IMG/VR virus record: IMGVR_UViG_3300008224_000001
DNA: 50,991 bases
Source: a virus
Reading direction: 5' to 3' (one strand)
The notes under the pieces were generated by a model. That model was not told where the DNA came from and ran no database searches. It saw only the letters and a program-made list of their open reading frames with translations. Made by a program: the position numbers and the translations under genes. Below, one piece after another: positions 28,742-50,991 of the stretch; the stretch's first letter is position 1, and each line of letters starts with the position of its first letter.

Positions 28742-29130
28742 TCGAAGAAGAATTAAAAGCTGAAATGATTAGCTATCTATCAACCAGCGAAGCGACCACC
28801 CTGCCCGAACTCAATACTGCTTTCAGTGATTACGACGCGCAAGAAATCAGCGCAGCAGTGCAACACTTAATCAATCTCGAACAAGTTGAAACTACCCATA
28901 AAGACGGCACAATTGCTTATAAGCTAATCAGCGAAGAAACTCAGCAGAAAATAACAATTGAACATGTCAACATTCACATCGAAGAAATCAAAAGCAAGCT
29001 AAAAGGGGTTGAAATAATCGATTTCGACCTTAAAATTGCAGCGCTTAAAAAAATCGGTGAAATTATGGTCGATGATATTCAACAGTTATTGCATGATATT
29101 TGTGATGATTTAAACGCGGCGCATAATTAA
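28738..29130 (+). CDS. Hypothetical acidic protein (130 aa)
   Basis: ORF track. Confidence 0.5.
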   Translation: MIEEELKAEMISYLSTSEATTLPELNTAFSDYDAQEISAAVQHLINLEQVETTHKDGTIAYKLISEETQQKITIEHVNIHIEEIKSKLKGVEIIDFDLKIAALKKIGEIMVDDIQQLLHDICDDLNAAHN

Positions 29131-29140
29131 ATTTACAGCA

Positions 29141-29173
29141 CTTTGGTTTATCGGCTGGAGCGAGTAGTTTTAA
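29141..29173 (+). repeat. R0: a lone 3' half-element (CTTTGGTTTATCGGCTGGAGCGAGTAGTTTTAA) opening the array
   Basis: Nearly identical to the 3' ends of E7 (31616-31648) and E9. No matching 5' arm upstream. Confidence 0.6.
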
Positions 29174-29193
29174 GGCATTGAAAGGATAGGATT

Positions 29194-29385
29194 ATGATAA
29201 TGAACTGTCCATTTTGCAACAGCGATGCGGGATACTATACTAAGCAAGTAGTCAGATTCATACAGCATCATGAATTTGATAAAAGTGATACGTGCGCTGG
29301 GGAAAGCCGCCATGTTTCAGGCGGAAAAGTTAAATATTGTGAAAAATGCAATAAGAACATAACAAAGTATTTACCAGCCATATAA
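29194..29385 (+). CDS. Cassette 1: zinc-ribbon protein (63 aa)
   Basis: CPFC...(43)...CEKC; RBS GAAAGGA. Confidence 0.55.
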   Translation: MIMNCPFCNSDAGYYTKQVVRFIQHHEFDKSDTCAGESRHVSGGKVKYCEKCNKNITKYLPAI

Positions 29386-29442
29386 CGAGCAAGAGCTAAC
29401 CCGCCGGTGCTTTTTCCGGTCGGGTTGAGCGTGTAGTTATAA
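29380..29442 (+). repeat. E1, attC-like element (63 bp)
   Basis: ATATAAC|GAGCAAGA|GCT-AACCCG-CCGG [loop] CCGG-T-CGGGTT-G-AGC|GTGTA|GTTATAA. The TAA stop of cassette 1 lies inside the 5' box. Confidence 0.65.
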
Positions 29443-29475
29443 ATAATGTAAGATTTAATTAATGAGGGAATGATT

Positions 29476-29781
29476 ATGCTAAAAATGTATATGGGATTTG
29501 ATTCATATCAAGAAGCTTGCGAGGGAGCGGTTCTTATTTTTGCTAACGATGTAAAAGAAGCCAAGAAGCTTGCATATCCAACAATCAGAGATTGGTTTGA
29601 TACAGAATGGATAGGATTAAAAGTAAAGTTATTAAAAAATTGTGATTACTTAATGTCAGAGTCTATATCAGACCAGCCGCATGTTGTTAGAACCCCTAAA
29701 GTTTGCCCGAAATGTGAATTATGGGGGACTGGTGAGGTTATTAATGGTACATGCCCAGAATGTAATGATCCTGATTTATAA
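29476..29781 (+). CDS. Cassette 2: protein with a C-terminal zinc ribbon (101 aa; start at the ATT-ATG as in the other cassettes)
   Basis: CPKC...(13)...CPEC; RBS GAGGGA. Confidence 0.55.
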   Translation: MLKMYMGFDSYQEACEGAVLIFANDVKEAKKLAYPTIRDWFDTEWIGLKVKLLKNCDYLMSESISDQPHVVRTPKVCPKCELWGTGEVINGTCPECNDPDL

Positions 29782-29901
29782 CGAACATAGCTAAACAGCC
29801 TGCGCGAGTGCGGAACATTAATTAAATACCATGTCGTTGATGTCAACAAGATGGTTAAAAATGTCGTAGCTCAGCAGGTCTTTTTGAGCGGTATGTTATT
29901 A
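29776..29901 (+). repeat. E2, attC-like element (126 bp)
   Basis: TTATAAC GAAC ATA-GCT-AAA ... TTT-G-AGC-GG-TAT GTTATTA. The stop codon lies inside the 5' box. Confidence 0.6.
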
Positions 29902-29922
29902 GGCAAACAATGAGGAAATATT

Positions 29923-30132
29923 ATGTTAATAGACGAAATATCTTTAAATATAGTTAGAAAATTAAATGAACAAAAATATATTGGCGGTAGAGTCCAGAAA
30001 AATGCGGCATTACAGTGTGAATTAAATAAGATTCTTATTGCATTAAACGAGGCAATCGGTAGACCGGCTGGAGTTGTTCCAGCGTGTGCCGATGAGTTTT
30101 ATTCGCAAGAGTATAAAAGCAAAGCCTTATAA
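29923..30132 (+). CDS. Cassette 3: hypothetical protein (69 aa)
   Basis: RBS TGAGGAAATATT before the ATG. Confidence 0.5.
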   Translation: MLIDEISLNIVRKLNEQKYIGGRVQKNAALQCELNKILIALNEAIGRPAGVVPACADEFYSQEYKSKAL

Positions 30133-30254
30133 CAAAGTAAGTAATCTGTTTTGCGAAATGAAACTGGGAGCTATTTAAACAACTAATTTTAACGATAACT
30201 AAAGCCTAAAAAACATGACAGCTTAGCAAAATCTGGTTGACTGGTATGTTGGTA
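30127..30254 (+). repeat. E3, attC-like element (128 bp)
   Basis: TTATAAC ... GTTGGTA. The internal segment ATTTTAACGATAACTAAAGCCTAAAAAACA is shared with E9. Arm pairing is weaker. Confidence 0.5.
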
Positions 30255-30274
30255 GGCATTGAGAGGAACAGATT

Positions 30275-30469
30275 ATGAACATAACAAAGACCCTTAAAAT
30301 AATATCTTATTTACTTGCGGTAATAGGTATTTCATTAATTATTGCTTTGCGAATAATTGGTATTGATTTAACCGAGGGGCAGCTGCTAGTTAATTATGCG
30401 CCATACTGGTTTTTGGCCATCGGGTGCTTAGTAGGTAGTTATGCTATTTTTAATAATGCGAAAACTTAG
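30275..30469 (+). CDS. Cassette 4: small membrane protein (64 aa, 2 TM)
   Basis: Hydrophobic segments ISYLLAVIGISLIIALRIIGI and WFLAIGCLVGSYAIF. Confidence 0.5.
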   Translation: MNITKTLKIISYLLAVIGISLIIALRIIGIDLTEGQLLVNYAPYWFLAIGCLVGSYAIFNNAKT

Positions 30470-30471
30470 CC

Positions 30472-30599
30472 TTCCAACGAAGTAGTTGAGCTGAGAACGG
30501 CTTGATTAGAATATGTGATTTAACTAACGAATTTTAACAATAAACCTTCTGACAAAAAACGAGACGCAATAGTGAATCGGCTCGAACGCTATGTTAGTA
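30472..30599 (+). repeat. E4, attC-like element (128 bp)
   Basis: TTCCAAC GAAGTAG TTGAGC ... GCTCGAA CGCTAT GTTAGTA. Roughly 85-90% identical to E5 by eye. Confidence 0.6.
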
Positions 30600-30621
30600 G
30601 GTAAACAACGAGGTGAATATT

Positions 30622-30753
30622 ATGATTGAAAAACTGTGGCTAATTGCTTTAGTGCTTAATGTATTAATCAATATATTTTTAACTAAAAATTACTTATGCG
30701 CCGGTGCTTGGTTTGTTGCCATTCTTGCGTTATTCCATACTCCAACCTTCTAA
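30622..30753 (+). CDS. Cassette 5: membrane peptide (43 aa), below the ORF-track cutoff
   Basis: Own translation MIEKLWLIALVLNVLINIFLTKNYLCAGAWFVAILALFHTPTF; RBS ACGAGGTGAATATT. Confidence 0.45.
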   Translation: MIEKLWLIALVLNVLINIFLTKNYLCAGAWFVAILALFHTPTF

Positions 30754-30875
30754 CGAAGGAGTTGAGCTGAGAACGGCTTGATTAACTGAAGATAATTAAC
30801 TAACGAATTTTAACAATAAACCTTCTGACAAAAACCGAGTTGCATTAGTGAATCGGCTCGAACGATATGTTAGTA
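30748..30875 (+). repeat. E5, attC-like element (128 bp)
   Basis: TTCTAAC GAAGGAG TTGAGC ... GCTCGAA CGATAT GTTAGTA. The TAA stop of cassette 5 lies inside the 5' box. Confidence 0.6.
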
Positions 30876-30895
30876 GGTAAACAACGAGGTGGCTT

Positions 30896-31087
30896 GTGGA
30901 TAAAAAAGATTTTGGTGAAAAACTGGGTGCGGAGATGAGATTCTGTGATAACAAAGTTCAGGAGTTAACAAAGAAAAAGGAGGACATTACTTCTGCAATA
31001 GCATACTGGGAAGAACAAGCAAGCGCGGCAAGGTCAATGAATGCTAGGTTTGTATTTGAAAGTGCGGAGACAACATTCGATAAGTAA
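30896..31087 (+). CDS. Cassette 6: hypothetical protein (63 aa, GTG start)
   Basis: RBS ACGAGGTGGCTT before the GTG. Confidence 0.45.
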   Translation: MDKKDFGEKLGAEMRFCDNKVQELTKKKEDITSAIAYWEEQASAARSMNARFVFESAETTFDK

Positions 31088-31091
31088 GACC

Positions 31092-31219
31092 TTCTAACGT
31101 CTTGCTCAGTTGACGCTAGAGGGAATGAGAAGAACCCCGACAAAACAACTGAGCTTTGAAAATATTTGACCTTTGATAAAACCACGCTTCCAGCGGTCAA
31201 CTGGAGCAATTTGTTATAT
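31092..31219 (+). repeat. E6, attC-like element (128 bp)
   Basis: TTCTAAC|GTC|TTGCTC-AGTTGAC-GCT ... AGC-G-GTCAACT-G-GAGCAA|TTT|GTTATAT. Confidence 0.7.
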
Positions 31220-31237
31220 TTGATTATAGGAAAAATT

Positions 31238-31489
31238 ATGAATTTTGGACAAGCGATACATGAAATGAAAGCTGGTAGAAATGTTGCTAGAAATGGATGG
31301 AATGGTAAAGGCATTTTTATTGCCATTCAATTTCCTGATGAAAACAGCAAAATGACCAGCCCTTACACTTTTATTAATACAACTGGCTTGCAAACTGACA
31401 ATGACGATGCTCCAAAAAGCCTTGTTCCTTGGTTGCCATCTCAAACTGATATGCTTGCTGATGACTGGATTGATGTCGGTGCTGGATGA
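31238..31489 (+). CDS. Cassette 7: DUF2829 protein (Tad2-like candidate), 83 aa. Start moved to MNFGQAIHEMKAGR.
   Basis: MNFGQAIHEMKAGRNVARNGWNGKG.FIAIQ ... VPWLPSQTDMLADDWIDV is the DUF2829 hallmark. Confidence 0.7.
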   Translation: MNFGQAIHEMKAGRNVARNGWNGKGIFIAIQFPDENSKMTSPYTFINTTGLQTDNDDAPKSLVPWLPSQTDMLADDWIDVGAG

Positions 31490-31516
31490 TTTAAACCCTC
31501 GTATTCCAAGGATGGA

Positions 31517-31648
31517 ATATAACGAACATAGCTCAGTGTAAACCAAAAATTATAGGAGGTGCTTATGATTGGCGCAGGTTCTGGAGATTAGAAGAAGATA
31601 TTTAAGTACACCGCGCTTTGGTTTATCGACTGGAGCGGGTAGTTTTAA
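31517..31648 (+). repeat. E7, attC-like element (132 bp)
   Basis: ATATAAC GAACATA GCTC-AGT ... ACT-G-GAGC GGGTA GTTTTAA. The loop contains a strong SD plus an 8-codon mini-ORF. Confidence 0.6.
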
Positions 31649-31668
31649 GGCATTGAAAGGACATGATT

Positions 31669-31872
31669 ATGAATGAAGATGAATTAATTAAAAAAGTTAA
31701 TGATGAGTTATCTTTAGATGATGTTAAAGAATTAATACGCTGGGCGTGGAAAGAAGCAAAGCTAGAACAAAGGAATTTATGCATTGCAGCTATTAATAAC
31801 TGTGAAGATACTGGCTTCGGAAGAATACGTAGATTAGAAGCTCTTGGTGCGTGCGTAATTAGTGCCGAATAA
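31669..31872 (+). CDS. Cassette 8: hypothetical protein (67 aa)
   Basis: RBS GAAAGGACATGATT before the ATG. Confidence 0.5.
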   Translation: MNEDELIKKVNDELSLDDVKELIRWAWKEAKLEQRNLCIAAINNCEDTGFGRIRRLEALGACVISAE

Positions 31873-31998
31873 CGGTAGAGTTGAGATGAAACCAACATGC
31901 ACAAGAAAAGCTACTTTTGTGTGCATGAGTTAAGAACGTACACAAATTAATTTAAACACGCAGACTGTTGGTTTTCATTCTCCAACGCTGTGTTATAA
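31867..31998 (+). repeat. E8, attC-like element (132 bp)
   Basis: GAATAAC|GGTAGAG|TTG-AG-ATGAAA-CCAACA ... TGTTGG-T-TTTCAT-T-CT-C-CAA|CGCTGT|GTTATAA. Confidence 0.7.
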
Positions 31999-32016
31999 AT
32001 TTTTACAAGGCGATTT

Positions 32017-32196
32017 ATGAGTTTAGTAATTGAACATAAAAACATATATAGAAAAACTGTAAAAGGCGGTAGGTATTTTAAAATAATGAGCTTTCATCGA
32101 AAGATTGCACCTAAAAAATGGAAATTTAGACGCCCTGCAAATATTGATTTGATAATAAATAGGAGTGACTATGAAAATTACCTTTCCTTTGATTAG
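32017..32196 (+). CDS. Cassette 9: basic hypothetical protein (59 aa), below the ORF-track cutoff
   Basis: Own translation MSLVIEHKNIYRKTVKGGRYFKIMSFHRKIAPKKWKFRRPANIDLIINRSDYENYLSFD. Confidence 0.4.
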   Translation: MSLVIEHKNIYRKTVKGGRYFKIMSFHRKIAPKKWKFRRPANIDLIINRSDYENYLSFD

Positions 32197-32209
32197 TCGC
32201 TATCTTGAT

Positions 32210-32341
32210 TTATAACGAACAAAGCTCACCTGTTTTACGAAAACAAAAACAAGCGATAAAAAGCAGTAAAATTTTAACGATAACTTAAAGCCTAAAAAAC
32301 AAGTCGTAGCTAGTAAAATCTGGTGGAGCGAGTAGTTTTAA
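32210..32341 (+). repeat. E9, attC-like element (132 bp)
   Basis: TTATAAC GAACAAA GCTC-ACC..TTTTAC ... GTAAAA..GGT-G-GAGC GAGTA GTTTTAA. Confidence 0.65.
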
Positions 32342-32363
32342 GGCATTGAAAGGACAGAATACT

Positions 32364-32711
32364 ATGAGACATGAAATATCAATTCACGACGAAAATAACA
32401 AAGAATACACAAAAATTTTTGATTTTGAAAGAGAGATTAAAAAAGGAGACTCCCTTCTCCTAAAGGATCTTGATTGCGCAGAAGTATTTTCTTCAGAAAT
32501 AAACATGATTGATGGCGGCATATATTTACGGGCAAGTTTTATGGTGATTTATGAGGAGGATCTAATAGAGGCTGGATTCAAAACGAGAGAGACAATCGGC
32601 GAAGAAAAAGCCCAAAGAAAAGAGGATGATCTAGTAATAAAAGAAAGACATAAGCAACACATGACGCTCATGAAAAAACTTATTAATATAGGAAAAAGTG
32701 AAGCCGAATAA
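32364..32711 (+). CDS. Cassette 10: hypothetical protein (115 aa)
   Basis: RBS GAAAGGACAGAATACT before the ATG. The track ORF starts at an upstream TTG. Confidence 0.5.
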   Translation: MRHEISIHDENNKEYTKIFDFEREIKKGDSLLLKDLDCAEVFSSEINMIDGGIYLRASFMVIYEEDLIEAGFKTRETIGEEKAQRKEDDLVIKERHKQHMTLMKKLINIGKSEAE

Positions 32712-32782
32712 CTACTTATTAACCGGCACATTTGCCCTGCTATTGGATATTAGCCGGTAAATCGGGAATCAGAAAGTTATCC
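32706..32782 (+). repeat. E10, tentative short terminal element (77 bp)
   Basis: GAATAAC ... ACCGGC [loop] GCCGGT ... GTTATCC. The 3' box overlaps the DnaA box, so it may be coincidental. Confidence 0.3.
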
Positions 32783-32785
32783 ACA
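32777..32785 (+). promoter_or_regulatory. DnaA box TTATCCACA (perfect consensus)
   Basis: Read directly; flanks the AT-rich region and iterons. Confidence 0.6.
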
Positions 32786-32962: not shown

Positions 32963-33006
32963 AGAGCCTGAAAAACTTAGCTAAATCAGCAACATAAAAG
33001 CCCATA

Positions 33007-33091
33007 AGTGGAGTAAATGAAACTACAAGTGTAGTAAATGAAACTACAAGTGGAGTAAATGAAACGGTTAAGTAGAGTAAATGAAACTGCA
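33007..33091 (+). repeat. Four tandem 21-bp iterons (AGTGGAGTAAATGAAACTACA consensus)
   Basis: 33007-27, 33028-48, 33049-69 and 33071-91. A fifth copy lies inside rep at 33786-33802. Confidence 0.9.
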
Positions 33092-33137
33092 GAACGAAAG
33101 CTGTGGTGCATTATTCCACCTATAAAAAGGAGTGCTT

Positions 33138-33914
33138 GTGAATAGTAAATTAATCATCGCTAAAGACAATACGTTAATACGCGCTAGATATTCGTTATCT
33201 GTAGCAGAACAGCGCGTTATTTTGCTTTGTATTGCTAAAATTGATAGTAGAAAGGCGCATGGCGGGGAATTTGAGCTATCAGCCACAGAATTGCATAAGG
33301 AAACAGGCGTATCGCGTGAGAATGCTTACAGGGACCTTAGAGCCGCCGTTGATAGCTTATATTCAAGAACTATAATTTTAGAGAGTGATAGTGAATTGCG
33401 GTGGCTGTACCAGAAGGCGTTCTTCAAAAATAAAAGTACCGCTGTTATCTGTTTCTCTCCCCCTATTCTTGCGCTTATTACCGAGCTTAAAGAACGATTT
33501 ACAAGTTACAGACTAAAAGATGTGGCGAACTTTAAGTGCGTTTATAGCCTGCGGTTTTATGAGATTTTTGTACAATGGCAAATTAAAAATAGCTTAACGC
33601 TGTCAGTCGATGAATTGAGGCATATTTTACAATTGGACGACAAATACCCGCGTATATCGGATTTTAAAAAGTACGTTATAAATCCATCACTCGCTGAAAT
33701 TAATAAATATAGCAACATTAAGGCCAGTGTAAGCCAAGAAAAAACAGGCAAGGAAATAACGCATTTAACATTTAAATATTCTATAAGTGGAGTAAATGAA
33801 ACAAATAAAACAATTAAAATAAGTAAGTTAGAAATCGAAGAGGCCGCAAGACCTGGCGAAAGCTATGCAGATGTTGAAGCCAGATTAAAGCGAACCGTAA
33901 AAAAAGCAGAATAG
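33138..33914 (+). CDS. repA: Iteron-binding plasmid replication initiator (Rep_3 family). GTG start 5 nt after AGGAG.
   Basis: SKLIIAKDNTLIRARYSLSVAEQRVILLCIAKIDS..., typical of Rep_3 initiators, with adjacent iterons. Confidence 0.8.
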   Translation: MNSKLIIAKDNTLIRARYSLSVAEQRVILLCIAKIDSRKAHGGEFELSATELHKETGVSRENAYRDLRAAVDSLYSRTIILESDSELRWLYQKAFFKNKSTAVICFSPPILALITELKERFTSYRLKDVANFKCVYSLRFYEIFVQWQIKNSLTLSVDELRHILQLDDKYPRISDFKKYVINPSLAEINKYSNIKASVSQEKTGKEITHLTFKYSISGVNETNKTIKISKLEIEEAARPGESYADVEARLKRTVKKAE

Positions 33915-49350: not shown

Positions 49351-50991
49351 GACAATAACCCTCCAGGGCGTTTCTCTTTGACTAATGCTTGAGTGATGGC
49401 TGTTTTAACTAGCTCACTTATCCCCTGCATTTTTTTCTGATCGTTATCGCCGCCTTCAATGGTGACAGGCACGGTGATATTAAAGCTGGTTGTTTTGCCT
49501 GATCCGCCACCCTGACGGCTATTTCTAGGATCAGAGCGCGAGATAACATCCTCACCCGTCTGCAAAATGGCCGGAAATTCATCCGCTTTTAAGCCATCAT
49601 GAAAGCGCGATGCATTATTAAACACCATGGGGTTAACATCTATCGGCTTACCCGTTCGACCGGTTAAATTATCCCCGCCGGTATGAAACGAAAATCCACT
49701 AAACAAACTACCCAAACCACTCACCGCCGCATTAGTGATTGCTTGTGACGCACTCTTTGCGGTAATTTGCGCAATGGAATCTAATATGGATAATGAAAAC
49801 GCCTTAAACGCATCCCCTGCGCTATTAATATCTTTACCAATACCAGAAAAAACATCACTAAAAGCCCCGCCTAACGCATCACGCGCATGGACTTCTAACA
49901 AAGAGCTTTCGCCCCTGAGTTGTTCAATTTTAGATTGTAAGGATTTAACCCCTTTACCCAAGTTAGGATCATTAGAAATAGCCGCGACGGCCACCATCTT
50001 TTCCAGCACTTCATCTAAGGCATCCGCTGTGTCTTTATGAATATCCAACACTTTCTGTCTTGATTCATAATCCGTCAATACGCCGGTATTTACGGAAACA
50101 TCAATACTGGCTTCACGCTGGCCCATTTTATTGAGTTCTGCAGAAACCTGTTTTTCCATTTTTGATAAGGCTATTTTTGTCGCTTCATTATCAATCAGAT
50201 TATTAACAATAGCTTGCCCTGCAACACGGCTATCACCTTTTAAATTGGCTAACATCGTCGCATAGCGGGCGGCAATTTCTTTTTGCGAGGCTTCCGCATG
50301 ATTACCCGTCGATTTCAACAAAGAAATTTGTGCGGCATTCAGTGTTTTTAGTGCATCTTGCTCACGCTTTGCGGCTGATTCTGATAGTTTAGTCCGATCA
50401 TCAGCGGCTTTTCTTCGCGCACTGGCAAGATCAAGCTCACCCTGTTTAAGAATCGTTACCCGCTCATTTTCTTTGCGCTGGATATTTTCATCCGCCCTAA
50501 ACTTAACAATCGGAGTCGCTTCTTCATTATCTAGCTGCCTACGGCGCTCCTTTAAGCTGTTTACTTCACGCTGATTTTGCGCCAGCTTTAAAGCCGTTAC
50601 CCGCTGCCCGTGCTGCTCTATGCTGATTAGCTCATTCGCTAGGCTTTCATCAAGCTGTTGCGTTTGTATTTTTGTAGCTGCGACACCTGATTGCTCAAGC
50701 GTGCGCGTGCGAATGACAGTTTCTTTAATGCCATTGGCAATTCGCAGTTTGTTCTTATCTTCTAGCTCTTTTTGTAAATTAGCCGCACTCCCTTCGGCTA
50801 ATTTTTTATCATCCGCTTGTCTTTTTGCATCAAAGACATCCAGTTGCTTATCAATTTCTTTAATCTGGCGAACAACGCCATTTTCGCCTTGCTGCCTACC
50901 TTGAACCGCTAATTGGTTAACTAAAGCAAGCCGCTCTGCTAACAGCTCATTTCTGATCGCCTCATCCGACGGGTCGATCATATTTTTAGCG
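49347..50991 (-). CDS. Tail tape measure protein, C-terminal part (continuation of 1070..1)
   Basis: Long coiled-coil-rich ORF directly upstream of the distal tail genes. Its N-terminus MIDPSDEAIRNELL is the same sequence as codons at 113..1. Confidence 0.85.
   Translation of the reverse strand, partial: AKNMIDPSDEAIRNELLAERLALVNQLAVQGRQQGENGVVRQIKEIDKQLDVFDAKRQADDKKLAEGSAANLQKELEDKNKLRIANGIKETVIRTRTLEQSGVAATKIQTQQLDESLANELISIEQHGQRVTALKLAQNQREVNSLKERRRQLDNEEATPIVKFRADENIQRKENERVTILKQGELDLASARRKAADDRTKLSESAAKREQDALKTLNAAQISLLKSTGNHAEASQKEIAARYATMLANLKGDSRVAGQAIVNNLIDNEATKIALSKMEKQVSAELNKMGQREASIDVSVNTGVLTDYESRQKVLDIHKDTADALDEVLEKMVAVAAISNDPNLGKGVKSLQSKIEQLRGESSLLEVHARDALGGAFSDVFSGIGKDINSAGDAFKAFSLSILDSIAQITAKSASQAITNAAVSGLGSLFSGFSFHTGGDNLTGRTGKPIDVNPMVFNNASRFHDGLKADEFPAILQTGEDVISRSDPRNSRQGGGSGKTTSFNITVPVTIEGGDNDQKKMQGISELVKTAITQALVKEKRPGGLLS
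50869..50991. repeat. Second copy of the terminal overlap (same as 1-123)
   Basis: Identical 123 bp. Confidence 0.95.

Follow-up and report, generated by a model that had tools for sequence, protein, structure and literature searches.

The phage-plasmid sequence analysed here (the window, 50,991 nucleotides in all) probably contains, at positions 29141-32783, genuine attC sites of the integron type, clustered together with gene cassettes but lacking an integrase (a CALIN). The array lies on the + strand and consists of ten small genes with hairpin repeats, E1-E10, between them, plus a truncated half-site, E0. The phage-plasmid that carries it is complete at about 50.9 kb and circular, since its first 40 nt recur at position 50869; its structural genes are lambda-like, and it encodes a CI-type repressor, a Rep_3 initiator with iterons and ParA. 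Neither a tyrosine or serine recombinase nor a transposase was detected by Pfam among ORFs of at least 60 aa (the giant tail gene set aside), or by PHROGs among the unannotated non-structural proteins, and the complete genome contains no intI or attI. Consequently, the array is a CALIN rather than an integron and would need an integrase in trans. The preliminary description had read the region as an integron-like cassette array. Its attC sites and cassettes are upheld by the model tests and natural variants presented below, but the integron itself is not; that reading is therefore partly supported and appears largely right.

Layout of the array

As the preliminary description had it, ten small ORFs, all on the + strand, are parted by repeats; the ORFs measure 43-121 aa and occupy positions 29194-32711. 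From one box to the other, the repeats E2-E9 span 126-132 nt, in agreement with the earlier figure for eight of the ten repeats, while E1 (64 nt) and E10 (about 75 nt) are shorter. Each repeat starts with an ..AAC box and finishes with a GTT.. box; the boxes quoted previously are all present, and E3 ends in GTTGGTA. The left end of the array is formed by E0 (29141-29177), which comprises only a 3' L''-R'' arm and leader and was recognised through a 75-nt direct repeat that recurs in the 3' portions of E7 and E9. A 5' crossover box is missing from E0, and the sequence upstream contains no complementary 5' arm.

The first gene, O1 (29194-29385), encodes a Cys-rich, zinc-ribbon-like protein of 63 aa with weak zinc-ribbon and PHROG matches; it is always preceded by a 130-aa backbone gene, and the junction is identical in L002, L003, L049 and L050. 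The short site E1 (29379-29446) separates it from O2 (29470-29781; 101-103 aa, with a C-terminal CxxC zinc ribbon, supported by a family search), and E2 (29775-29905) separates O2 from O3 (29923-30132; 69 aa), for which family searches, including PHROGs, gave no match. There follow E3 (30126-30258), O4 (30275-30469; 64 aa, a predicted membrane protein), E4 (30471-30603), O5 (30613-30753; a predicted membrane peptide of 43-46 aa, for which the gene call in L001 gives 43 aa) and E5 (30747-30879), which is 90% identical to E4. The remainder of the array is made up of O6 (30896-31087; 63 aa), E6 (31091-31223), O7 (31238-31489; 83 aa), E7 (31516-31652), O8 (31663-31872; 67-69 aa), E8 (31866-31999), O9 (32017-32196; 59 aa, basic), E9 (32209-32345) and O10 (32346-32711; 115-121 aa). 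The terminal site, E10 (32705-32783), is degenerate: its R boxes (GAATAAC/GTTATCC) pair at six of seven positions, its stem is imperfect and a clear bulged base is absent. Directly downstream on the + strand lie four iterons of 21-22 bp (33005-33091) and the Rep_3 initiator gene (33132-33914; PF01051/PF21205).

Hairpin anatomy, strand polarity and attC models

The repeats display the hallmarks of attC sites, namely AAC and GTT boxes, a spacer left unpaired, an L stem of few base pairs and bulges formed by G or T. E1 is laid out as 3 bp, a bulged G, 6 bp, a bulged T, 4 bp and a loop, matching the bottom strand of attCaadA (L028); E6 as 5 bp, a bulged G, 7 bp, a bulged G and 3 bp; and E8 has three bulged bases (C, T, T) with VCR-like spacing. 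A G directly follows AAC in nine of 11 sites. Such a G has been described for the R' box, and extrahelical G and T bases for the R''-L'' arm (Bouvier et al. 2009). Since, on the + strand, the additional unpaired bases of the array lie in the 3' arm, this strand reads R'-L'-VTS-L''-R'', that is, as a bottom strand. The preliminary description was right about attC anatomy but had the strand reversed (R''-L''-loop-L'-R'). E0, the degenerate state of E10 and the assignment of the extra unpaired bases to the 3' arm had no place in it. Judged by this anatomy, the coding strand is the recombinogenic bottom strand and the 5' box (TAA/C) the crossover box. When single-stranded, each + strand repeat is predicted to fold into a hairpin that begins at its base with a 7-bp R box (..TAAC / GTTA..), followed by an unpaired spacer and an L stem of 3-5 bp; beyond a bulged G comes another stem, in many cases with a T bulging out after it, and finally a variable centre.

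With the coding strand as the bottom strand, the cassettes are inverted relative to canonical ones, with the attC first and the gene second. This holds for all cassettes in the window, L014, L020 and L021 and for four of five in L019, whereas class 1, Vibrio, Shewanella and phage TJE1 cassettes have the opposite polarity; insertion at a normal attI would thus leave the phage cassettes antisense to Pc. The crossover box contains the TAA stop codon of six of the ten genes, and a conserved leader with a ribosome-binding site belongs to the repeat. The mobile unit would accordingly run C-[attC body]-GTTRRRY-leader with ribosome-binding site-ORF-..TAA.

These sites could be recognised by a strict pattern requiring AAC..GTT, a paired R box, an unpaired spacer, an L stem of at least 3 bp and, in the 3' arm, a bulge of 1 nt with at least 3 bp more beyond it. 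This grammar scan returned seven loci on the + strand, all within the array (E1 and E4-E8 among them), and two on the - strand, both outside it, compared with 2.6 loci per 51 kb, both strands together, in shuffled windows. In three control integrons the matches fall on the strand opposite the genes. Plain minimum-energy folds of whole elements were not significant for E3, E4 and E9, whose short terminal stems are masked by long variable centres. Across 17 members of the family, 83% of predicted pair cells were paired, against 37-46% when the partners were slid, and 59 cells were compensatory (double-sided) against 21 in shuffles (0/500).

The attC reading also held up against two covariance models, home-made substitutes for the IntegronFinder model whose E-values are roughly calibrated. 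R1 was trained on phage repeats only. It recovered six of six class 1 attC sites (E=2.5e-5 to 0.13) and nine Vibrio anguillarum sites at E<=0.2, with further ones weaker, always on the bottom strand; unrelated loci totalling 276 kb gave no match at E<=0.1. Within the window it found E1, which had been held out of training (E=2.6e-5), E2 (a training member, E=6.8e-15) and E7 (E=1e-19), and a match at 29029-29177 that includes E0 (E=0.022). R2 was trained on 16 canonical attC sites only, with an alignment guided by R1. Over the whole 51 kb it recovered eight of the ten repeats, all on the + strand: E6 (the top match, E=6.9e-5), E5 (2.2e-4), E4 (4.5e-4), E9 (7.7e-4), E3 (9.1e-4) and E8 (1e-3), and more weakly E2 (0.035) and E1 (0.057). 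The next match had E=1.9. E7 was weak under this canonical model (E=3.4), and E10 gave no match with R1 and just a weak - strand match with R2 (E=1.9). Held-out Shewanella sites and three published TJE1 phage sites scored in a similar range with R2. The phage repeats and canonical attC sites thus recognise each other in two independent model tests.

Because the element has no intI and no matching host integron was found (a scan of genome contigs for the same attC family gave two chance matches only), we infer the recombinase. A non-IntI recombinase, unrecognised and encoded by the host or the element, might instead act on attC lookalikes, the inverted polarity then marking a separate origin. 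Consistent with this are the missing IntI and host integron, a polarity contrary to four of four canonical controls, the conserved leader within the repeat, and the fact that the repeat family was seen only on mobile-element-like contigs that are CRISPR-targeted. Nevertheless, the repeats carry the features that IntI reads (AAC-G, the L-box bulged G, a T about 6 bp further on and the unpaired spacer), each model recognises the other's sites, the 51-kb genome offers no candidate enzyme, and IntI1 has been shown to recombine attC sites carried by phages (Qi et al. 2023, PMC9892861). We consider such a lookalike system unlikely.

Natural variants and cargo

Metagenome contigs 99.7-100% identical to the window, at a low coverage of 2-4x, reveal variants of the array. 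In L001, L005 and L021, a 599-bp cassette consisting of a short attC and a 174-aa GIY-YIG-like gene sits exactly at the 5' box of E9; it is bounded by TTATAAC/GA and ACATAAC/GA, with 7 nt in common. A second junction, seen in two samples, joins O10 to E1-O2, the DNA 3' of the E10 5' box being replaced by E1. At the third, also seen in two samples (L021, L051), a different 62-aa gene (ORF62) takes the place of O7 ahead of E7. All three breakpoints lie at 5' TAAC boxes, with a shared identity of 5-7 nt (ATAAC or ATAACGA). Cassette gain or loss and reordering therefore occur at TAAC boxes in natural populations, and relatives of the window thus show the cassette-level polymorphism that the reading in the preliminary description requires.

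Could the 599-bp difference instead reflect homing of a GIY-YIG endonuclease gene, and the other differences mis-assembly across repeats? The 174-aa ORF has weak GIY-YIG/endonuclease matches (Pfam E=0.001, under the family threshold; PHROG E=9e-5), coverage is low, and L001 is an apparently circular 4-kb contig that closes on itself by a 77-nt overlap; it may be an assembly-graph cycle of two coexisting cassette orders and not an excised circle. Yet the insert brings its own attC, detected by the grammar scan, and a TAAC box at either end, the variant junctions recur in independent samples, and the gene order of the window is supported by six 100%-identical contigs from three datasets, which makes this explanation extremely improbable.

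The repeats might also act at the RNA level or in transcription, as terminators, mRNA stabilisers or translation leaders, with the contigs differing through ordinary homologous recombination between similar repeats. Such shuffling is proposed for the PeSL elements of T4-type phages, each a promoter plus a stem-loop; these too are intergenic hairpins that recur among small early or accessory genes, where they would favour the modular shuffling of genes. In accordance with this reading, the repeats sit in 5' untranslated regions with a ribosome-binding site, and several of them share identical stretches of 20-30 nt, e.g. GTAGTTTTAAGGCATTGAAAGGA. Moreover, ORF57 in L014 and L019 has unrelated attC bodies on both sides, as if exchanged independently of them; the exchanged unit is thus not always an attC with its downstream gene, and additional routes may be recombination of the top strand or homologous exchange within the conserved leader. 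However, the 5-7 nt of identity at the three recent breakpoints, between otherwise unrelated repeats, is insufficient for homologous exchange; promoter-like sites show no enrichment (25 vs 23.9 expected), few repeats are terminator-like, and the strand-specific bulges, an attC-type hairpin asymmetry, and the cross-recognition with attC sites are left without explanation. An RNA-level or PeSL-like origin, the latter resembling the alternative offered in the preliminary description, is accordingly very unlikely.

The array genes appear to be real, as indicated by a Tad2-like match and an excess of synonymous changes. O7 matches the Tad2 family (anti-Thoeris, formerly DUF2829; PF11195) over its full length with E=5.5e-23, and also has PHROG matches. 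The O2 homologue in L020 differs by 16 synonymous and 8 non-synonymous codon changes, synonymous changes prevailing 16:8 and 7:1 in the comparisons made, and an O9 homologue is located in the different array of L020. Type I-F-like CRISPR arrays carry spacers against both repeats and cassettes; one spacer matches E3 at 32 of 32 positions (30207-30238), with a CC PAM ahead of the protospacer.

Relation to known cassette systems

The preliminary description knew of no attC-type cassette arrays in phages, a view outdated by the report of 17 phage CALINs (Qi et al. 2023, Front Microbiol) and by the class 1 integrons of P1-like phage-plasmids (Pfeifer et al. 2022; P1 isolate MH445380). Like the present array, phage CALINs combine attC sites and small genes in tailed-phage genomes without intI, and their cargo has been proposed to counter host defence (PMC9892861). 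The examples published in detail, however, have few sites (three in TJE1) and canonical polarity, with the bottom strand opposite the genes, whereas the present array has ten sites and a half-site, carries all its genes on the bottom strand, incorporates a conserved leader and ribosome-binding site into its repeat, exhibits insertion and reordering among natural variants, and resides on a Rep_3/ParA phage-plasmid. The integrons of P1-like phage-plasmids also place cassettes on a phage-plasmid, and E1 shares its stem and bulge layout with attCaadA; those are complete or fragmentary mobile integrons, transposon-borne, with resistance genes and intI1, in contrast to the phage-type cargo found here without integrase or transposon context. 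The sedentary chromosomal integrons of Vibrionales resemble the array in their 120-130-nt attC sites of related families, with two or three bulged bases in VCR-type sites (three in E8), in the recovery of V. anguillarum sites by R1, and in their many small genes of unknown function. They differ in having intI, attI, Pc and top-strand genes, while the phage array lacks this platform, has inverted genes and is heterogeneous, with several attC sub-families.

In the CALIN interpretation, an integron integrase, supplied in trans from the host chromosome or another resident element, would cleave the 5' box at its A-C step, and attC x attC recombination would swap cassettes. The array would be transcribed from the repressor-side operon, each cassette having its own ribosome-binding site, and the cargo would be small accessory genes, one Tad2-like anti-Thoeris protein among them. 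Accessory genes thus seem to be traded among phages via a bacterial gene-cassette system.

The repeats as attC-type sites

Ten small ORFs (O1-O10) on the + strand, at 29194-32711, alternate with the hairpin repeats E1-E10, as the preliminary description had it. Measured from box to box, E2-E9 are 126-132 nt long, E1 is 64 nt and E10 ~75 nt; a 5'-truncated half-site, E0 (29141-29177, + strand), precedes O1. The G+C content of the array is 36%, against 44% for the element overall. The genes look real, since O7 encodes a full-length Tad2-like domain (E=5.5e-23) and homologues of cassette genes in other contigs differ by more synonymous than non-synonymous changes (16:8 and 7:1). The ribosome-binding site of each cassette is part of the repeat's conserved 3' flank (GTT..AGGCA..GAGG/AGGA), and in 6 of the 10 genes the TAA stop codon sits inside the crossover box, directly before the crossover. 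E4 (30470-30615) and E5 (30746-30891), leaders included, are 90% identical copies placed before the unrelated genes O5 and O6; O4 and O5, near these two repeats, encode tiny predicted membrane peptides. Between the stop of the Tad2-like gene and E7 is a small perfect hairpin, TATTCCA-AGGA-TGGAATA (31502-31519), whose sequence overlaps the E7 box in its 5' part.

All of E1-E10 begin with ..AAC and end with GTT.., as expected of the R' and R'' boxes of attC sites, and these AAC/GTT pairs are kept in 16-17 of the 17 sequences in the alignment of the phage repeat family. The R-L spacers are unpaired in every parsed element (4-8 nt on the 5' side, 4-5 nt on the 3' side). Whole-element minimum-energy folding was uninformative for E3, E4, E5 and E9, and arm-only folding with a structural grammar was used instead. 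The repeats range from 64 to 132 nt, within the general attC range that we applied (about 57-141 nt), and, as in attC sites with their variable centres, structure is conserved more than sequence. The alignment used to assess covariation comprised 17 long members of the family; eight of them are window repeats and the other nine come from metagenome contigs. Mean column identity was 56%, yet 83% of the cells were paired, compared with 37-46% when partners were slid, and compensatory changes occur. Compensatory cells numbered 59, against 21 in shuffles (0/500), and both sides change in 11 of the 12 pairs of the L-box, second and third stems.

A structural scan of the window found seven loci on the + strand, all within the array, and two on the - strand, both outside it; shuffled windows gave 2.6 loci per 51 kb. 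In each of the control loci, L006 (a V. anguillarum chromosomal integron carried by phage p16), L028 (class 1 arrays of a P1 isolate) and L029 (a Shewanella integron), the scan matched the strand opposite the cassette genes. We then compared two covariance models, which are stand-ins for the model of IntegronFinder and whose E-values are rough. The first, R1, was trained on phage repeats only. It recovered 6/6 class 1 attC sites (E=2.5e-5 to 0.13), all on the bottom strand, and nine V. anguillarum sites at E<=0.2, with more at weaker scores, again without exception on the bottom strand. The phage portion of the V. anguillarum locus gave no match at E<=10, and 276 kb of unrelated loci gave none at E<=0.1. 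Within the window, the held-out E1 scored E=2.6e-5 and the half-site E0 E=0.022.

The second model, R2, a proxy for the IntegronFinder attC model, was built from 16 canonical sites only. A MAFFT alignment of these sites, which are of unequal length, misplaced the arms, and a model-guided alignment was used in its place; the R2 alignment was guided by R1. On the + strand R2 recovered 8 of the 10 repeats at E<=0.057 (E6, E5, E4, E9, E3 and E8 at E=7e-5 to 1e-3, E2 at 0.035 and E1 at 0.057), with the next match at E=1.9; it missed E7 (E=3.4) and E10. Held-out Shewanella sites and the three published attC sites of TJE1 (L053; 242-294, 1014-1076 and 1460-1517) had R2 scores in the range of the phage repeats. 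The TJE1 sites, recovered on the strand opposite the genes, are a useful external check of the model. The proposal that the repeats are attC-type sites therefore passed the covariance-model check by proxy in 8 of 10 repeats, and R1 reciprocally matched canonical sites.

A CALIN is a group of at least two closely spaced attC sites (4 kb by the IntegronFinder default) with no intI nearby. The array corresponds to this class: no intI was found, and nine model-supported sites share one strand over 3.1 kb. It does not correspond to a complete integron (intI, adjacent attI and Pc), as no tyrosine recombinase was found in the scanned ORFs of >=60 aa.

Strand and polarity

In a hand parse of the folded arms, E1-E9 carry a bulged base on the 3' arm after an L stem of 3-5 bp; the base is G in eight of them and C in E8. 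The structural scan confirmed this bulge in 7 of E1-E9. A second bulged base, T, is present in E1 (6 bp further) and in E8, and E10 has no clear bulge. By arm-only folding, E1 reads TATAAC-GAGCAAGA-GCT-AACCCG-CCGG-loop-CCGG-T-CGGGTT-G-AGC-GTGTA-GTTATA, that is, R box, unpaired spacer, 3 bp, bulged G, 6 bp, bulged T and stem. The attC site of an aadA cassette in the class 1 control has the same layout when read on its bottom strand. The extrahelical bases of attC sites, an L-box G and a T 6-8 nt beyond it, lie on the R''-L'' arm, and a G usually comes after the R'-box AAC (Bouvier et al. 2009). AAC-G is read in 9 of 11 sites here, and the bulges lie on the 3' arm of the + strand; the + strand is thus the bottom, recombinogenic attC strand. 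The attC architecture with extrahelical bases proposed in the preliminary description was upheld, and its R''-L''-loop-L'-R' labelling has to be reversed.

In a canonical cassette a promoterless top-strand ORF is followed by its own attC site; here, the bottom-strand matches lie on the coding strand. The bottom strand is opposite the genes in all four controls (class 1, V. anguillarum, Shewanella and TJE1, a published phage CALIN); it is the coding strand for all ten window cassettes and for almost all family members. The only polarity exception seen in the family is the leftmost cassette of a sediment contig, L019 (positions 1-620, oriented), where a GIY-YIG-like gene (motif recognized by eye) lies on the opposite strand and so has canonical polarity. 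Inversion of an array does not change the strand relation between attC site and gene, and the relation is therefore a property of the cassettes themselves. In a normal integron such inverted cassettes would be antisense to Pc. In the window they are co-oriented with the repressor-side operon. In large chromosomal integrons, the recombinogenic strand has been reported as the leading-strand template. The + strand of the window would have this role, and so share the arrangement, if the array is replicated by a fork that leaves the neighbouring Rep_3 origin in the leftward direction. The inverted polarity raises the questions of how the cassettes arose, which strand is exposed in transcription and replication, and whether they could be expressed in a normal integron.

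Cassette exchange in natural variants

Variant contigs were collected from several metagenomes by exact-protein look-ups and a motif scan. The cassette order of the window itself recurs in six contigs from three datasets, five of them 100% identical (L002, L003, L049, L050, L052) and one 99.98% (L004). Three variant junctions lie on an otherwise 99.7-100% identical background. In L001, L005 and L021, a 599-bp unit, consisting of a short attC site and a gene for a 174-aa weakly GIY-YIG-like protein, is inserted between O9 and E9; its junctions are TTATAAC|GAGCAG and ACATAAC|GAACAA, which have only ATAACGA in common. In L001 and L005, O10 is followed by E1-O2 instead of E10 (junction GAATAAC|GAGCAAG), and in L021 and L051 E7 is preceded by a 62-aa gene rather than by O7. 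The expectation that relatives swap cassettes at the repeats was thus borne out by an insertion, a reordering and a change of neighbour. All three junctions, which are independent, fall within the ATAAC(GA) of the + strand 5' box, at a resolution of 5-7 nt rather than a single nucleotide. Canonical attC recombination cuts the bottom strand in the R' box, between the A and C of AAC. Since all breakpoints are in the 5' box, the unit that moved is an attC site together with its downstream gene. The ends of L001 overlap by 77 nt and so close the contig on itself; it was not adopted as an excised circle, since a graph cycle arising from two coexisting cassette orders explains the closure equally well.

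The same repeat family surrounds other small genes in L014, L019 and L020, with R2 matches on the coding strand. One gene, ORF57, is flanked on both sides by unrelated attC bodies in L014 and L019, which suggests that the conserved leader or the vicinity of the 3' box is also a place of exchange. In the 4.9-kb contig L019 (2155-4032, oriented), the array ends at a GAATAAC box. The ATG of a Rieske-type oxygenase gene adjoins this box, and a gene for a heavy-metal-associated/membrane protein comes next; the G+C content jumps from 0.32 to 0.45. If it is not a chimeric assembly, the contig represents an array in a replicon of bacterial type. In L021 (526-660, oriented), the variant array opens with an attC site preceded by a 139-aa gene; the gene lacks a DNA counterpart in the window, and its product may be Ntn-hydrolase-like (judged by eye). 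The 5' box of this attC site reads TAAT instead of TAAC, making it a boundary site that, like E0, has lost its crossover box. This boundary site and its neighbour suggest that the same cassettes may sit in a different backbone.

The preliminary description had offered, as an alternative, a modular shuffling of the PeSL type, in which an early promoter and a stem-loop accompany each module and exchange is homologous. This was not borne out: promoter-like sites are at background level, and the breakpoints share only 5-7 nt. Integrase-mediated movement of the cassettes remains our preferred reading. Among window ORFs >=60 aa other than the giant tail gene, Pfam detected no tyrosine or serine recombinase and no transposase. 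A recombinase hidden among the unannotated proteins was considered as well, and PHROGs revealed none among those that are non-structural, matching only a replication initiator, a Ren-like protein and regulators. Phage attC sites have been validated experimentally and are recombined by IntI1 (Qi et al. 2023, PMC9892861). An integron integrase supplied in trans would then move the cassettes, a mechanism that we regard as the best-supported one, given the IntI-specific determinants of the sites and the published recombination of phage attC sites by IntI1. A scan of species-representative genomes with the 3' arm motif gave two matches; as both arose by chance inside coding regions, no host integron was found.

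The carrier element, its host and the role of the cassettes

The first 40 nt of the window recur at 50869, the ends 1-123 and 50869-50991 overlap by ~123 nt, and the tape-measure gene is split over both ends, so that the window is a circularly closed genome of ~50.87 kb. Its phage genes encode a lambda-type large terminase, a portal, a ClpP-type protease, a decoration protein, the major capsid protein and tail proteins, one of them 3332 aa long; a CI/S24 repressor, SSB, an O-like replication initiator, a holin and a transglycosylase are also present. Plasmid functions are represented by ParA and by a Rep_3 initiator behind four iterons. It is reasonable to infer from this gene content that the element is a phage-plasmid. 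The iterons (21-22 bp, consensus AAGTGGAGTAAATGAAACTAC, 33005-33091) immediately precede the Rep_3 gene, and their distance from the array end is only ~220 bp. Unusual passenger genes are found elsewhere in the genome (7277-7636, 9385-9978, 18453-19682 and 20720-21376); they encode a transglutaminase-like cysteine protease (BTLCP), a class 3 lipase beside the holin, a 'polyvalent protein' with LPD29 and LPD30 domains, and a superinfection-immunity protein.

The large terminase is at most 45% identical to those of known phages and plasmids, and the element thus has no close cultured relative. Homologues of Rep with 50-60% identity sit on other plasmids and phage-plasmids, which have no arrays. 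Near and distant DNA searches of phage and plasmid collections with the array and its flanks found no match save for the Tad2-like gene. Scans of viral contigs with the Rep protein and the repeat motifs gave nothing or chance single matches, and R1 was negative in those loci.

Two CRISPR arrays, the metagenome contigs Ga0209495_1043108 and _1050102, have the type I-F-like repeat GTTCACTGCCGTACAGGCAGCTTAGAAA, and at least eight of their spacers are directed against the repeat/cassette family. One spacer matches 32/32 inside E3 (30207-30238), preceded by a CC PAM; two spacers have near-perfect matches (32/32 and 30/32) to a cassette gene of L019, one spacer matches L014, and another matches 24/26 in the 130-aa gene upstream of the array (29012-29037). 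Three spacers target the conserved attC arm and ribosome-binding-site leader (3' arms of E0, E7 and E9). The arrays themselves are frequent CRISPR targets, which shows that an element can be put at a disadvantage by the conserved recombination sites it carries. The spacers tie the array system to a host whose CRISPR array is type I-F-like and, since they match the window, L014 and L019, probably one host population harbors all three.

The earlier view that attC arrays are unknown in phages was overstated. P1-like phage-plasmids with class 1 integrons have been on record since 2022, and about 10,700 phage genomes yielded 17 CALINs and 3 complete integrons (Qi et al. 2023, PMC9892861). What is new here is the size of the array, its uniform inverted polarity with a built-in leader, its phage-type cargo including a Tad2-like gene, its targeting by CRISPR, and direct population evidence of cassette gain and reordering. 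We tentatively propose, as a reading that falls just short of probable, a phage-adapted, polarity-inverted branch of integron cassettes, in which the attC site comes first, the cassette has its own translation leader and the gene lies on the recombinogenic strand. These cassettes would form a pool common to phage-plasmids and other mobile elements of one marine/sediment host population, would be moved by an integrase in trans and would deliver anti-defence and accessory genes, with conserved attC arms common enough to be recurrent CRISPR targets.

Integrons are usually viewed as bacterial stockpiles of resistance genes and, lately, also of anti-phage defence genes. The accessory and anti-defence genes of phages turn over fast, by routes that are poorly defined. 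Here, ten accessory genes of a temperate phage-plasmid, including a Tad2-like one, have the form of integron-type cassettes, and natural variants of the element show that cassettes were recently gained and reshuffled at the attC boxes. The recombination machinery would then be common to phages and to the defence "biobanks" of their hosts, a concrete, testable route for the exchange of anti-defence genes.
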